Positions 1 through 20,081 of a DNA stretch of 25,183 bases are shown here, piece after piece. Every line of letters begins with the position of its first letter. Within the stretch, counting starts at the first letter, position 1. The translations under genes and the position numbers were made by a program. The notes beneath the pieces were generated by a model. That model saw only the letters and a list, made by a program, of their open reading frames with translations, did no database searches and was not told where the DNA came from. The stretch is from Promethearchaeota archaeon (GTDB lineage: Archaea > Asgardarchaeota > Lokiarchaeia > Sigyniarchaeales > SOKP01): NCBI GenBank assembly GCA_019057865.1, contig JAHLWP010000047.1:1-25183 (forward strand). The letters run 5' to 3'.

Positions 1-220
1 AACTTTATGTTTTTATTTGAATTTTTAATTATATACCATATTAATTTTATATAATAATTAGAGAATTGATTTTTATATATATTGATATTACTCTTAAGAA
101 TCTATGAAAAGAATTAATAATTAACCTATCACCAGTATAAACTTCTATTCCTTCCTAGAATTTTTAATCTAAAATAAAAAAAATTTGAGAAAAATGAATA
201 ATTTAGATATTTTTAAGAAC

Positions 221-388
221 CACTCAGGTAATTTAATAGAGTGTAGCTATATTTGCAAGGTGACTCCTGCCAACGAGACCTAAGTACAAGGTCAAAAATA
301 TTGTAGGGGGAGTAGGGCGAAATTTTAGTGTACTTACATACACTACCAAAAGACAAAAATCCAGGGTGTTTAGCAGGAGTCATGGTTT
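221..388 (-). ncRNA. Candidate structured non-coding RNA (unknown family)
   Basis: GC-elevated patch in AT-rich DNA. Perfect 10-bp closing inverted repeat TGACTCCTGC (261-270) / GCAGGAGTCA (373-382), extendable through a G-U pair only on the minus strand. Internal hairpins at 277-293 and 326-345, extra hairpin at 221-243. Minus-strand TTTATATA box at 413-420. Confidence 0.4.
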
Positions 389-521
389 TTTATCTTATTT
401 CTATGGTTAAAATATATAAATAAGCATTTAAGTTCTTTTATTTTAAAAATATATAAAATAAGAAGCTAAGAAATTTTTACCTTTGAATTTTCAAATTTTT
501 TTTTAAATACTTTGAGTTCTC

Positions 522-1139
522 ATGCCTTATATGAGACTATTAGATTTAAGAAAATTTAATTTTAAGTGCTTATTATGTGGGAATTGCTGCTATAATGTAT
601 TACGTAAGGTGGAAACTAAAGATTATGCCTATGATTATCGTGGCAATTTTACACAAAATCCAGAAATCTCAGTTGCAATACCATATACCGAATTACCTAA
701 ACTTAAAGAAAATATTCATCAACAATACAACTTAGATCTTAGGGTTCATCCACAGGGTGTATTTTTTATGAAAGATTTTCCTGTTGGTTTCATATATCTA
801 TACCAAATGGGCGTAAAAAAGAAGAAATTTTGTATGTTTTATGATATTCGTCAAAGGAAATGTAAAATCTATTCTGTAAGACCTTCTACTTGCCGATATT
901 TTCCTCTCATATACAATCCACGTAATATTAGTTTTCCTAGTATTGAATGGGCTTGTACCGGAATTGAAAACGAGGTTAGAAAACAATTTTCTACTATGAA
1001 AGACAAACAGGTTTTCCAGATTGATAATATAGAGTTAGCACGTACCTTTCTAGATGAAATTTCTAATGTTCCAAGTTATAGTAATTTTTATCGTACTTCC
1101 TTTTGTGTATTTGCGAAATTTGGACTTCAGCTTTTCTGA
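522..1139 (+). CDS. YkgJ/UPF0153-family cysteine-cluster (CxxCxxCC) Zn/Fe-chelating protein
   Basis: FKCLLCGNCC near the N-terminus and CMFY..RKCKIYSVRPSTCRYFP, the family's C..Y..RP..CR.FP signature. Confidence 0.85.
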   Translation: MPYMRLLDLRKFNFKCLLCGNCCYNVLRKVETKDYAYDYRGNFTQNPEISVAIPYTELPKLKENIHQQYNLDLRVHPQGVFFMKDFPVGFIYLYQMGVKKKKFCMFYDIRQRKCKIYSVRPSTCRYFPLIYNPRNISFPSIEWACTGIENEVRKQFSTMKDKQVFQIDNIELARTFLDEISNVPSYSNFYRTSFCVFAKFGLQLF

Positions 1140-6980: not shown

Positions 6981-9680
6981 TTGAAAGATTTTAATGAAAT
7001 TATGAAAATAAATAATGGTCTAAAATTTTATAAGAGTGATTTACATATCCATTATCCTATAAAAATTAAGAATGAAAGTGAATGTTATGCAGAAGAAACC
7101 ACCATAAATGATGTCATTGATAAATTGATAAAAAATAATTATGAATTAATAGTTATGGGACATCATAATTCCATAAAAGCTATTTTTGAAATTAAAAACT
7201 ATATTGAAGCAAATAAAGATCTATCCATCGTTATATTGCCTTCTATCGAATTAAATTTAAAGGAAAATTTTCACCTTGTTATAATTTTTCCAGAAAAGTA
7301 TAATGAAGATCAAATAAGAGATATTTTAGTGAATTTTGGATTAAAATCTCCACCAAACAGAGATTATTATGAAGAAGAGACATTAAACTATTTTGAAAAT
7401 ACAAAATCGGTCACAGAAAAAGATATGTGGTATATTCTTGAAGAATGTAAAAAGAATAAGATAATTGTATTAGCACCCCATATCATGAGTGAAGATAATG
7501 GTTTTTTTAAACGAATAATTGATAGAGATCGAAATAAGATTATCAGAGAAGATCTTCTCACAATTTTAGAATGTAATCAAATTCCAACTTATTATAAGAC
7601 AAGTAAAAAAGAATTAGGAAAAAAAATTGCTCAGATAAGTTGTTCTGATGCTCATAATTTATCTCAAATCGGAAATGCATCTACATGGATAAAAATGGAT
7701 ATTCCAAGGTTTAAAAGCTTACAACAAATTATATATGAACCAAAAATACGAATTTCACTTGAGGAACCCGTATCAGAAATAAAATTTAAGATTATTGGAA
7801 TAACGATTGATGGTGGAAAGTTAAAAAATTTAAAAGTACATTTTAATGAAAATTATAACTCTATTATTGGAGGAACTGGTTCTGGTAAATCTGCTATTCT
7901 TGATGTTTTTAAATATATCTTTAATAACTTTGGTTATAATAACAAATTTAAAAAAATTTCTTTAAAAAGATTATATGATATTCATAAACCCGGTACAAAA
8001 TTCACATTATATTGTCAATGTTTAGGTGATATTTATAAAATTGTTAGAGAAATTCCAACTATTCAAGATTTTAGCAAAAAATTAGAAAAAGATATTGATG
8101 ATCTAATTGAAAATTTGACTCAACATGAGATTTTTAAATTAGTTCTTGATGATTTTCAAAAGATAACAATAGATCTCAACGATATATTTAACCCTGTAAT
8201 ATTTGGACAAAATGAACTTTTAGATTACTCATTTGTACCAGAAAATCTAATTGAGATTTTTAGTGCTAAAGTTAAAAGTGATATATATAATGATTTTAAT
8301 GAGCTTTATAATAATCTAAAAAGCAATATTACTATTTTTGATAAATTGAAAGACTTAAATGATGATAGAGATGATATTGAATTTAAGATAGAAGAAGCTA
8401 ATAAAGATATTGAAAAAAGTGAAATCAAACTTCAAGAAATTAAGGAAAAATTTCCAAAGCTTGAAATTTATAAGAAAGAAAGACAATATTTCAATAAAAT
8501 AAAGAGAAATTTGAAAGATAATTTAATTATTATTGAGAAATTTACTCAAGATCTTACATTAGAACTTGAACTTATTGAATTGACAGAAATAGCGAATAAA
8601 GACCAATTTAAAAAGATTAACAAAAAGCTAGAAAAACTTAGAGAGATTAAAAATGAAATCGATAAAAATATAGAACTTTATAAAAAGATTTATAAAGAAA
8701 TCAAAGAAATTTACAATTCTGAATTGCAAAATATATATAAGACTTATAATAATGAATTTAACGAATATTGTAAAGATAATGAAATACAAGATATAATTGA
8801 AGTTCAACAATATATTACTCAACGTGAAAGTGAACGCAACTTATATATAATGGAAAAAGAAAAAATAGAAAAGGATATTAAAGATTTAGAGCAGAAAAAG
8901 AAAGTTTTTTTAGAAGAGCTTGAAATACTCTATGAAAGATATAATAAACTATTCGAAGATTGGAGAAGACAAGCAGATTTATTTACTTCTAAAATGCAGG
9001 GGGCGACAAAAATAATAATCGAATCAATTACAAATATAGATGAATTCGAATCAATTTTAAAAGAGATGGATTTAAATTCAAATCAAATAAATAAAATTAT
9101 TAAAAAATTTACTCCTAAAGATTTTAACACATTATATGAAAATGATAGAGATATATTTAGAGAAGAATTAACCCAACTTAAATTTAAAGAGAAGACAATT
9201 GATAAGATAAGCGGTAATATTACAGAATTAATCCAATATAGGATTAAATTATGCATTGATAAGCCATCTGTAAAATTTTTCTTAAAGAAGAATTTTAATT
9301 TTTTTCCTATTGATGAGCTATCTACAGGAGAAAGATGTGCTACATTGTTAAATTTTGTCTTTTGTGAAAGTACAGAACCCGTTATAATTGATCAACCAGA
9401 AGATAATATAGATTATAATTATATTAGGGAAACGATTAAAATTCTTAAAGAACAAAAGGTTATAAGACAATTCATAATTGTATCACATAATCAAAATTTA
9501 CCGGTTTTAGCAGATGCTGATTTAATACTAACTATGAATAATATTCAAGATAAAAAGATTGAAATCAGATATCGGGGGAGTCTTGAAAATGAGGATATTC
9601 ATAAATCTATATTAAATCTTGAAGGCGGAAAGGAGGCATTTGAGCTTAGAAGTAAAAAATATCAATTAATTGAGTTTTAG
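6981..9680 (+). CDS. PHP phosphoesterase + coiled-coil ABC-type ATPase fusion (TrlF family / Ppl-like defence protein)
   Basis: PHP motifs DLHIH, HHN, SIE, FHL, APH, SDAH; Walker A GGTGSGKS; Q-loop FGQNE; long coiled coil; signature LSTGER; Walker B IIDQPED; H-loop SHN; terminal LEGGKEAFELR. TTG start, alternative ATG at 7002. Confidence 0.88.
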   Translation: MKDFNEIMKINNGLKFYKSDLHIHYPIKIKNESECYAEETTINDVIDKLIKNNYELIVMGHHNSIKAIFEIKNYIEANKDLSIVILPSIELNLKENFHLVIIFPEKYNEDQIRDILVNFGLKSPPNRDYYEEETLNYFENTKSVTEKDMWYILEECKKNKIIVLAPHIMSEDNGFFKRIIDRDRNKIIREDLLTILECNQIPTYYKTSKKELGKKIAQISCSDAHNLSQIGNASTWIKMDIPRFKSLQQIIYEPKIRISLEEPVSEIKFKIIGITIDGGKLKNLKVHFNENYNSIIGGTGSGKSAILDVFKYIFNNFGYNNKFKKISLKRLYDIHKPGTKFTLYCQCLGDIYKIVREIPTIQDFSKKLEKDIDDLIENLTQHEIFKLVLDDFQKITIDLNDIFNPVIFGQNELLDYSFVPENLIEIFSAKVKSDIYNDFNELYNNLKSNITIFDKLKDLNDDRDDIEFKIEEANKDIEKSEIKLQEIKEKFPKLEIYKKERQYFNKIKRNLKDNLIIIEKFTQDLTLELELIELTEIANKDQFKKINKKLEKLREIKNEIDKNIELYKKIYKEIKEIYNSELQNIYKTYNNEFNEYCKDNEIQDIIEVQQYITQRESERNLYIMEKEKIEKDIKDLEQKKKVFLEELEILYERYNKLFEDWRRQADLFTSKMQGATKIIIESITNIDEFESILKEMDLNSNQINKIIKKFTPKDFNTLYENDRDIFREELTQLKFKEKTIDKISGNITELIQYRIKLCIDKPSVKFFLKKNFNFFPIDELSTGERCATLLNFVFCESTEPVIIDQPEDNIDYNYIRETIKILKEQKVIRQFIIVSHNQNLPVLADADLILTMNNIQDKKIEIRYRGSLENEDIHKSILNLEGGKEAFELRSKKYQLIEF

Positions 9681-18548: not shown

Positions 18549-20081
18549 TAGTATTCAAGTATTTATTTTTTTTTCTATTATTTTCCGTGTTCGGAGAGCC
18601 GACATTATTTTAAATTTAACCAATCACCCCCCGTGATTTTTTCTCCCTTGTTAGAAATAGCTGCTTCAAGTAATCCTGATTTTGAACTAAACTCCATTTT
18701 CTCCTTTTTCTCTCCCGCGTTCCGGCATTTTTGATCAATTTTTTGTTCATTTTCCACGAATTATAAAGCAGCAGTCTTGCCAGCATGTCAAGATATCGCA
18801 CGTTATCGTGATTCGATTTCCATCGACGATTGATCCGATTTAAGTCGCTGAATCCCGTTTCGATCAACCATCGTCGTCGATAAAATAATGAAGTGCGGGA
18901 CGCCCAAGAACTTGTCTTTCCTTTAGGTTTCTCAGTAGTCATGATGGCAAACACCCGCTTCCGGGCATCGTCTAAAGATATTTTCCCCGTTCGATAGTCT
19001 CGTTTCACGCCCTGAAGAGTGAATCTGCGTTTTGCTTTTATTATCAGGTAAACATGTTGGAAAAATCGGTGTTTTGCTTCGTTGGCACTAGAAAACGTGT
19101 ATCTCCGCACCCGATTTCCTTCTCCCTTTATGTAGGCTTCGATCATTCCCCGAACTTTCTTATATTCTTTGGTTGGAATTAAAACATTACCATTCTTGGC
19201 CTTTATCTCATGTAGGAGCACCGCCCTATAAAACTCTCGATCCATCAGGACATATTTCAACTCAAATCCGAGATCAAGAAGGTGGTCAAGAAATTCAAGG
19301 ATTATGGGGATTTTGGACTGTCCCTTGGCCACGTGCTCCAATCCCGCAAAAAGATGGATTTCCTTCGACAAAATCGAAAAACCGAGGTAATGACGCATTT
19401 TCTTCGTTCCTTTCTGCCGATTAGTACCCTTTATCATTTTATCCTCACGCTGACCGTAATATGGATGCTCAGTGAAGTCAATGATTACGTTAACTTTTTT
19501 CGAGATAAGTTTAAGTCGTAAAGCTTCCGTTAATTGGGAATCCAAGCAGGTTCGCAAAATATCGCGTGCTTTATTAAGTCCAATCCTACGGAGATACTTG
19601 TTTACTTCGGTTTGATGCGGAATAATGCGCCTTCTCCTCCCGTCAGCAAATGATTTACGTCTTCCTTTTCTACTCCTTAATAGATACTCGTTGAGCATTT
19701 CACTGGTGTCATGAATCGACCTTCCGATGATTTCGGAATAGAAAAATACTTTAAGGAAGTCTTGATCCTCATATCTTGCGTTTTTAGCTCTCTTGAACTT
19801 CCACGTGCGAGAAACAATTGTATCACAAAACTTTTTAAAAAATGTGAACATATAATGGTTGGAAAGAAGTGATTTGGTTCCCAAATCCATAAAGGGTTTT
19901 AGAACTATATTTTGTACTTTCATACATAAATATAATCACTTCTTTCTAATAAATTTAGCGGTAAATAATTTAATATTTATAAATTATAAAATTAATAATT
20001 CAAAATGTTAATTAAGATATAAAATTAAATAGAATAAGTCTCAGTTCATTAGGATTCAGACTTCAAAATCCTTTGATACTG
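18549..20081 (-). mobile_element. ISH3-family (IS4-related) insertion sequence, about 1.53 kb
   Basis: Intact DDE transposase with visibly higher GC than the flanks. Imperfect terminal IRs TAGTATTCAAGTATTT (18549-18564) vs CAGTATCAAAGGATTT (reverse complement of 20066-20081), 12/16 identical. TTATATA on both flanks (18541-18547, 20082-20088). Ends uncertain by about 1 nt. Confidence 0.7.
18616..19923 (-). CDS. ISH3-family DDE transposase
   Basis: IIDFTEHPYYG (D1), LMDREFY (D2), YRRRWLIETGF (YxxRWxIE); 435 aa with no interruptions. Confidence 0.92.
   Translation of the reverse strand: MKVQNIVLKPFMDLGTKSLLSNHYMFTFFKKFCDTIVSRTWKFKRAKNARYEDQDFLKVFFYSEIIGRSIHDTSEMLNEYLLRSRKGRRKSFADGRRRRIIPHQTEVNKYLRRIGLNKARDILRTCLDSQLTEALRLKLISKKVNVIIDFTEHPYYGQREDKMIKGTNRQKGTKKMRHYLGFSILSKEIHLFAGLEHVAKGQSKIPIILEFLDHLLDLGFELKYVLMDREFYRAVLLHEIKAKNGNVLIPTKEYKKVRGMIEAYIKGEGNRVRRYTFSSANEAKHRFFQHVYLIIKAKRRFTLQGVKRDYRTGKISLDDARKRVFAIMTTEKPKGKTSSWASRTSLFYRRRWLIETGFSDLNRINRRWKSNHDNVRYLDMLARLLLYNSWKMNKKLIKNAGTRERKRRKWSLVQNQDYLKQLFLTREKKSRGVIG

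Follow-up and report, generated by a model that had tools for sequence, protein, structure and literature searches.

Intergenic DNA near the start of contig C36 carries, away from genes, a 122-base element at 261-382 that belongs to a new family of structured small RNAs, itself a known kind of molecule. The window in which we analysed it comprises 25,183 nucleotides and is the start of that contig, in a 4.26-Mb assembly with 29% GC. The family is non-coding, occurs in one to eight copies per genome within a single archaeal family, and conserves both its helices and an unpaired core; the element is very probably a real structured RNA. The reading that we favour, which we hold as a whole with only middling confidence, is that 261-382 represents a single gene from a lineage-specific family of ~125-135-nt sRNAs that are likely transcribed from the minus strand, would act in trans as siblings of one another, and carry a putative protein-docking site in a U-rich tract.

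The original prediction had described a 122-nt unit with a perfect 10-bp closing stem (P1), two hairpins inside it, and a C-rich tract between the hairpins on the minus strand, and all of these can be read from the sequence as listed (Table 1). It had also noted that the stem continues through a wobble pair on one strand. The next P1 position, C271/A372, indeed fails to pair on the plus strand and forms G·U on the minus strand, with A272-T371 and A273-T370 next in line; because C271/A372 pairs only there, P1 reaches 13 bp on the minus strand only (10 Watson-Crick, one G·U and two A-U pairs between 370-382 and 261-273). Downstream of the second hairpin (293-277), the sense strand runs through UCGUUG into the 3' strand of P1 (273-261), after which this copy has CCUUGC where the family consensus is WCCYUUU, the consensus CCYUUU tail being absent here. 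The element is a local peak of GC content (0.41 vs 0.12-0.25 in the flanks). Its minus-strand fold has an energy of -37.8 kcal/mol (z = -4.24), which 0 of 200 shuffles equal, and its plus-strand fold one of -35.0 kcal/mol (z = -2.33). The window copy scores 131.4 bits across the full covariance model and therefore looks intact.

Table 1. Features in and around the element, in window coordinates (sense, minus-strand reading; ORF, open reading frame).
Feature	Position	Strand	Sequence or composition	Remark
P1 closing stem, perfect part	261-270 with 373-382		TGACTCCTGC with GCAGGAGTCA	10 bp; read directly
P1 5' strand (sense)	370..382	-	UGACUCCUGCUAA	pairs with 261-273
P1 3' strand (sense)	261..273	-	UUGGCAGGAGUCA	partner of 370-382
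Invariant unpaired core	346..366	-	CCCUGGAUUUUUGUCUUUUGG (sense); CCAAAAGACAAAAATCCAGGG (plus strand)	exact 21-mer matches
Unpaired invariant tract in the window copy	~369-346	-	ACACCCUGGAUUUUUGUCUUUUGG	
5'-proximal hairpin	326..345	-	TAGTGTA-N6-TACACTA	7 bp, 6-nt loop
Variable pyrimidine-rich joiner (sense)	294..325	-	AAAAUUUCGCCCUACUCCCCCUACAAUAUUUUU	window copy contains CGCCCUACUCCCCCU
C-rich tract	complement of 305-319		CGCCCUACUCCCCCU	
3'-proximal hairpin	277..293	-	GACCT-N7-AGGTC	5 bp, 7-nt loop
TATA-like box	420-413	-	TTTATATA	28 nt before the A of AUGACUCC
Upstream flank duplicated with the RNA, probable promoter region	383..504	-		TATA-like boxes 420-413 and ~460-444
56-codon ORF	213..383	-		present; rejected as a gene

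BLAST searches of the genome and of related archaea, which had been suggested along with the original prediction, recovered three further copies, 83-88% identical, from the window's own genome (contigs C64, C9 and C43) and between one and eight copies in each of the other genomes of the genus, 24 of 24 of which carry the element. A covariance model built from 93 sequences with three helices (R1) finds four strong and three to four divergent copies in the window's genome. All 25 sampled genomes of the window's GTDB family, spanning six genera, are positive with R1 at one to eight copies each, and the 125 genomes sampled from 28 further families of the phylum are all negative. The exact 21-mer CCAAAAGACAAAAATCCAGGG (346-366) occurs in at least 118 stretches of species-representative genomes, the titles of which nearly all name Promethearchaeota or Promethearchaeia metagenome-assembled genomes (MAGs), and an 18-mer inside the core (CAAAAGACAAAAATCCAG) matches at least 120 metagenome stretches. 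Record labels naming Hermod-, Hod-, Thor- and Odinarchaeota raised the possibility of an Asgard-wide distribution, which we rejected when R1, run across the 29 families, returned matches in one family only. Since its matches are confined in this way, these labels, together with three bacterial bin labels, are probably loose names or binning errors, and the element is no ancestral trait common to all Asgard archaea. The covarying family comprises ~190 distinct sequences, and paralogues inside one genome diverge as much as orthologues across genera.

The pairing in this family is supported at every modelled position. In 104 model-aligned sequences, each of the 23 pairs (12 in P1, five and six in the hairpins) shows compensatory double changes, the kind of covariation for which the original prediction had suggested testing homologues. 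Paired cells amount to 89.4%, vs 72.4% in shuffles, and the covariation score is 0.434, vs 0.148±0.006 in shuffles, none of 500 of which reaches the observed value; sliding the partners by one to three columns drops the score to 0.05-0.08. The 326-345 hairpin has compensatory changes at 6/6 modelled pairs, with 92.9% of cells paired and a loop of variable sequence. All five pairs of the 277-293 hairpin covary (e.g., GACCU/AGGUC, GACGC/GCGUC and GCCUC/GAGGC), and P1 occurs in variants such as GACUCC/GGAGUC, GGCUCC/GGAGCC and GCCUCC/GGAGGC. One genus is without the 277-293 hairpin, which is thus dispensable.

Read in the sense orientation, the members share one architecture: P1 (10-13 bp across the family), the invariant U-rich tract CCCUGGAUUUUUGUCUUUUGG, a hairpin, the joiner, a second hairpin, the return strand of P1, and a CCYUUU tail. 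Even the most divergent members retain AAAAGACAAAAAU(C/U)C (in plus-strand letters), and no partner strand for the invariant tract, the hallmark of the family, was found inside the RNA. A weak, G·U-containing hairpin can form within the invariant core on the minus strand. The joiner is CGCCCUCCUCCCCCUAUUUUAUUUU in most members; other paralogue groups have different C/U-rich joiner sequences or inserted hairpins, and the C-rich tract is not universal. The original prediction had also proposed a pseudoknot or switch, built on the loop region TAAGTACA at 281-288 being the exact reverse complement of TGTACTTA at 329-336. The match is exact in the window but peculiar to this copy: the other 97 scored members have only 2-6 nt of hairpin-hairpin complementarity, in the same distribution as non-cognate hairpin pairs. 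As the 8-nt complementarity is unique to the window copy, we find no support for a switch and rejected the alternative pairing as copy-specific.

No known RNA class accounts for the element. As the original prediction had anticipated, Rfam 15 has no match anywhere in the window at gathering thresholds, and at E<=10 positions 100-560 give nothing relevant, the one match being a spurious AT-rich hit to trypanosomatid mitochondrial LSU rRNA (10.4 bits). ARAGORN finds no tRNA or tmRNA gene in the window. RNase P RNA and SRP RNA were set aside, the genome having its own at C40:17000-17322 (140.7 bits) and C52:25269-25589 (85.7 bits), respectively. The identity of the element with 5S rRNA was tempting given that RF00001 matches nothing in the window's genome, the element included, and the two are alike in being ~120 nt long, closed by a helix from both ends and present in multiple copies; the branch lengths and conserved sequences of the element, however, do not fit helices II-V. 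We rejected this reading because separate, weak 5S candidates (23-28 bits with RF00001) lie at loci unrelated to the element in three genomes of the same genus, and because sister families have normal 5S genes and no element. Box C/D RNAs carry C (RUGAUGA) and D (CUGA) boxes at their ends, and H/ACA RNAs an ACA tail and a pseudouridylation pocket; inspection of both strands by eye showed neither a terminal C/D pair nor an ACA tail, and no Rfam snoRNA model matches.

The element is most probably transcribed from the minus strand, the strand at which the original prediction had hinted; family-wide counts of helix variants and consensus energies bear this out. G·U pairs are tolerated in real RNA helices, A·C pairs are not. 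When unique helix variants are counted, those whose one internal non-Watson-Crick pair is A·C on the plus strand outnumber those with G·U by 23 to 5 (p = 0.0009), and for variants with two such pairs the ratio is 17 to 3; by cell counts over 192 distinct sequences, it is 153 to 82, and A·C is the commoner at 17 of the 21 positions. Read from the minus strand, these A·C mismatches become G·U pairs, so that their excess favours the minus strand. The RNAalifold consensus energy is -36.4 for the minus strand vs -30.6 for the plus strand and was lower for the minus strand in 60/60 random subsets of eight sequences. The structure conservation index (SCI) is 0.875 vs 0.804 (higher for the minus strand in 56/60 subsets), and the single-sequence minimum free energy is lower on the minus strand in 81/100 members. 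These energies are not fully independent of the A·C and G·U counts, because they come in part from the weak G·U-containing hairpin in the core.

Duplicated copies point to the same strand. C64:8170-8413 matches window 260-504 at 85%, C43:23795-23987 matches window 265-455 at 87%, and G012:C64 matches window 315-504 at 84%. The own-genome duplicates thus share ~120 nt of extra flank solely on the side that is upstream in the minus-strand reading, and the similarity ends sharply at the opposite end of the RNA, a pattern that would look like a gene copied together with its promoter.

Several signs favour the same RNA family read on the plus strand, as a purine-rich molecule with A/G-rich junctions that ends at a T-rich tract past P1. 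This reading has a conserved 3' context (CAUNNUU), a right flank with 50-60% T for ~40 nt downstream, and runs of at least five T within 20 nt of the 3' end in 41/99 loci, vs 19/99 for the minus strand; a weak A/T peak lies at -33/-32. A conserved AAARGG leader could lengthen P1 by G·U pairs, G(-2)·U(+2) being present in 118/182 sequences. The plus strand has no internal T runs, whereas a minus-strand RNA would have U5 inside it, a possible terminator in archaea; the unpaired regions of the plus strand are rich in A and G, as is typical of structured RNAs. Against this stand the energies and the excess of A·C inside the helices, where G·U on the plus strand is rarer even than transversion-type mismatches, and the duplicates, which on the plus strand would carry 120 nt of downstream sequence and no promoter. 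We therefore consider transcription from the plus strand unlikely.

The TATA-like box of the original prediction is present on the minus strand, but it is not conserved even in two sibling copies (the C64 copy is without TTTATATA). As the box is missing from sibling copies in the genome, the 5' end proposed for the window copy is tentative. Promoter and terminator position profiles over the loci gave no decisive position-specific TATA signal on either side of the element. AAAATAGGG, considered as a genome-wide promoter element, was rejected; with 81 sites observed vs 52 expected it is not a general promoter signal.

The element sits alone in intergenic DNA, in the context of an independent gene, in line with the stand-alone sRNA of the original prediction. 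In 36-38 of 118 loci, including the C9 copy of this genome, the element occupies one syntenic slot, with a divergent radical-SAM gene (Zn_ribbon_HMPTM and Radical_SAM) on one side and the gene for a ~130-aa membrane protein on the other. Clustering all ORFs within ±3.5 kb of the 118 loci revealed no recurrent protein gene such as a transposase, TnpB, reverse transcriptase (RT) or Cas gene. Because ~30% of loci have a convergent neighbour in either strand reading, the following start codon lies a median of 233-241 nt away on either strand, and the neighbouring families are unrelated, we conclude that the element stands alone, and we somewhat favour a stand-alone, trans-acting RNA over other modes of action.

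A cis-acting 5' leader on the minus strand, riboswitch-like or protein-controlled and serving the next co-directional gene, with P1 and the U-tail as a terminator-like OFF state, would also suit a family that has one to eight copies per genome upstream of different genes and that combines a conserved core and a variable periphery with a closing stem followed by CCYUUU. The gene downstream in the minus reading is co-directional in 71/102 loci, but convergent in the other 31/102, and the gap to its start codon is long (median 241 nt, interquartile range 181-320). Downstream genes encode a radical SAM enzyme, an 88-aa protein followed by a DEAD-box helicase, or unknowns, and share no functional theme; on neither strand does the element lie consistently in the 5' UTR of functionally related same-strand genes, as a riboswitch or leader would. 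The window copy itself has no gene downstream in the 260 nt before the contig end. We regard a leader function as improbable.

The sRNA model leaves one feature of the flanks unexplained, which as a possible alternative pairing would fit a leader. In ~18% of loci, the C9 copy included, CC(C)TATTTTATTT is found in the right flank, at a distance of 12-24 nt from P1; it is the reverse complement of the joiner AAATAAAATAGGG (in plus-strand letters) and is missing from the window copy. Genome-wide, the motif does not behave as a common promoter word. Matches of at least 9 nt between flank and joiner occur in 27/99 cognate pairs, vs ~8 in non-cognate pairs and one in left flanks, and variants of the two are correlated (TAATATAGGG/CCCTATATTA and AAAATAGGA/TCCTATTTT). 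Duplex energies favour cognate over non-cognate pairs on both strands and do not discriminate between the strands. The flank motif might belong to a 5' leader that base-pairs with the joiner, forming a pseudoknot with P1, or it might be one of two inverted occurrences of a promoter-like sequence.

For the minus-strand RNA, we propose a stand-alone "sibling" sRNA that would be bound by a protein and act in trans. Paralogues share one unpaired segment and differ in another, as sibling trans-acting sRNAs do. The invariant U-rich tract may be the docking site of a protein that binds single-stranded, U-rich RNA; a protein site is favoured because the tract has no partner strand and no complementary site was found elsewhere in the genome. 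The obvious candidate would be an archaeal Sm-like ring, a putative partner that we put forward tentatively. The variable C/U-rich joiner, with its CCUCC-type anti-Shine-Dalgarno motifs, may let each paralogue recognise targets of its own through base pairing to G-rich sites, for instance ribosome-binding sites. An Sm-like-protein-bound sRNA with G-rich targets is proposed because the tract contains, on the minus strand, GAUUUUUGUCUUUUGG, which is close to Sm sites, the genome encodes four LSm-domain proteins (three of them clear, at C31:13433-13627, C5:129097-129312 and C69:24366-24560), the joiner usually carries CCUCC-type motifs, and the genome uses GGAGG/GGUGA Shine-Dalgarno sequences (GGAGG, AGGAG and GGTGA are ~10-fold enriched at -16..-6 before long ORFs).

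Comparable bacterial RNAs are the sibling sRNAs, among them Qrr1-5, and the C-rich sRNAs with anti-Shine-Dalgarno motifs (RsaE/RoxS, LhrC). The element resembles them in having several paralogues per genome, a length of ~100-130 nt, a common and absolutely conserved unpaired segment, unpaired C-rich motifs complementary to GGAGG-type sites, and a terminal stem followed by a U tail. In contrast to these bacterial RNAs, which belong to another domain of life and with which it shares no sequence relationship, its targets and chaperone are predictions, and its conserved segment is U-rich and without a complementary genomic site elsewhere.

Sm sites have the form AAUUU(U/G)UGG in spliceosomal RNAs, AAUUUGUCUAG in U7 and AAUUUGUCUUGG in Drosophila U7, and the minus-strand core of the element, GGAUUUUUGUCUUUUGGU, contains AUUU..GUCUU..GG, which is close to the U7 sites (bioRxiv 10.1101/2023.08.19.553944). 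A single-stranded R-A-U(3-6)-G-R site between helices, as expected of an Sm-class RNA, is found in GGAUUUUUGUC, which is invariant and lies between P1 and the hairpin, provided that minus is the sense strand. Like Sm-class snRNAs and U7, the element would be a small stable RNA with helices on both sides of a short, invariant, single-stranded A-U(n)-G tract, and its pyrimidine-rich joiner has a counterpart in the pyrimidine-rich (CUCUUU) guide of U7. It could be read as the scaffold of an Sm-ring RNP, a prokaryotic snRNA-like particle in which AUUUUUGUCUUUUGG would be a U7-type Sm site and the joiner would direct the particle to purine-rich targets, in the way that U7 finds the histone downstream element. 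Unlike U7, which consists of a 5' guide, an Sm site and a 3' hairpin, the element is a three-way junction closed by P1; no homology is demonstrable, the Rfam models of U7 and the snRNAs are without a match, and the invariant tract, at 21 nt, is twice the length of an Sm site, its likeness to which is one of sequence. This snRNA-like reading we consider improbable.

A miniature inverted-repeat transposable element (MITE) or other DNA-level repeat, in which the arms of P1 would be terminal inverted repeats, had been offered as an alternative in the original prediction, and we judge it very improbable. Like MITEs, the element is short, has an inverted repeat at both ends and occurs in multiple copies, several of them at contig ends; three copies in the genome are recent duplicates (83-88% identity), and the window encodes a DDE transposase at 18616-19923. 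The MITE reading is nonetheless unsupported, because target duplications are absent (over the family loci, flanking direct repeats of k = 3-8 at offsets of 0-8, or at any offset, are no more frequent than in permuted controls) and one copy sits in the conserved syntenic locus. Many dispersed, near-identical copies are not seen either: copy number is low, with four strong copies in the genome, and paralogues are as diverged as orthologues between genera. The hairpins covary independently and the unpaired core is invariant, neither of which elements based on terminal inverted repeats need, and the duplicated unit runs 120 nt past one of the supposed terminal repeats.

A small protein, encoded either by the 56-codon ORF 383..213 that the original prediction had listed or by a short leaderless peptide frame from the AUG found at the start of P1 in most members, can be dismissed despite the existence of the ORF and the hydrophobic residues encoded by the U-rich core, because the copies would translate the invariant core in any of three frames (LDFCLLVV, PWIFVFW and HPGFLSFGS), and since, besides, most members stop after 12-19 codons, indels of 1-3 nt separate the AUG and the core, and conservation tracks pairing, not codons.

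Our survey of the literature on Asgard structured RNAs, riboswitches and snRNA-like RNAs and of Rfam 15 found no description of the element. To our knowledge, Asgard archaea have yielded very few structured non-coding RNAs other than the universal ones, and we know of no good definition of the RNA partners of archaeal Sm-like proteins. The family is among the better-supported candidates obtainable from sequence alone, and its covariance model can be used at once for annotating these genomes, even if the Sm idea fails; it also helps to account for a class of contig breaks in Lokiarchaeal MAGs. For the biology of these organisms, it provides a tangible entry point to regulation by RNA in the archaea most closely related to eukaryotes, and its invariant U-rich tract offers a directly testable link to Sm-like proteins. 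If the reading as an Sm-ring scaffold were true, an Sm-class guide RNP would for the first time be documented beyond eukaryotes, in their nearest relatives among the archaea.

The right flank of the RNA, that is, the plus-strand 3' side, which would lie upstream if the gene is on the minus strand, carries recurrent sequence words. TTTTATCT, TTATCTTA, and TATCTTAT are enriched there, being found at 25, 15, and 12 of 104 family loci, respectively, versus 0–6 on the left flank, and may constitute a promoter or leader element. In the window, the corresponding word is TTTTTATCTTATTT, at positions 391–403. About 18% of the family loci, including L034 (the copy on contig C9 of the same genome, G000), have the sequence CC(C)TATTTTATTT located 12–24 nt to the right of the closing stem P1. 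It is complementary to AAATAAAATAGGG inside the RNA, and at some loci the flanking and internal sequences vary in a correlated manner; CC(C)TATTTTATTT is absent from the window copy. In one paralogue group (L132, L112, and L141), the right flank contains the palindrome AAGACAAAAAATTCnTGTCTTCTAG about 25–55 nt from the RNA, in which the RNA-core word GACAAAAA is repeated.

The exact 21-mer core, the invariant unpaired tract of the RNA, was also found at L076, L096, and L115, on contigs assigned to Saccharibacteria, Patescibacteria, and Nanopelagicaceae bins. Full family members are present at L096 and L115 (89 and 98 bits), and the three contigs are probably Lokiarchaeal and misbinned.

In the 60 nt preceding about 1900 long ORFs across G000, positions −16 to −6 show an enrichment of about 10-fold for GGAGG, AGGAG, GAGGT, and GGTGA; Shine-Dalgarno sequences are thus used by a substantial share of this Lokiarchaeon's genes. 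Searching the whole genome (99.7% complete) with the Rfam 5S_rRNA model (RF00001) returned no match. Only sub-threshold candidates (23–28 bits) were recovered from the three same-genus genomes G006, G023, and G002, two of which are closed, and two closed genomes of a sister family score 54–65 bits. The 5S rRNA of the genus seems to be divergent or frequently missing from assemblies.

Most ORFs in the window, other than those tabulated below, had no Pfam match, and the window looks like a variable genomic region. At its left edge, positions 1–55 and the reverse complement of G000:C56:20558–20612, at or near the end of contig C56, have the same sequence, which suggests that the assembly graph branches at a repeat immediately left of the window.

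Selected protein-coding genes with Pfam assignments or recognizable domains in the window
Feature	Position	Strand	Remark
CxxCxxCC-domain gene (PF03692)	522-1139		adjoins the RNA
AAA_23/SMC_N-type ATPase	6981-9680	+	899 aa
DDE transposase gene (PF01609)	18616-19923	-	

The CxxCxxCC-domain gene has a DNA paralogue on contig C64, which also bears a copy of the RNA (window 484–1058 versus G000:C64:15622–16196, 85% identity). There, the paralogue lies 7.3 kb away from the RNA copy, which means that the RNA-plus-flank unit (260–504) and the gene were shuffled as separate blocks.
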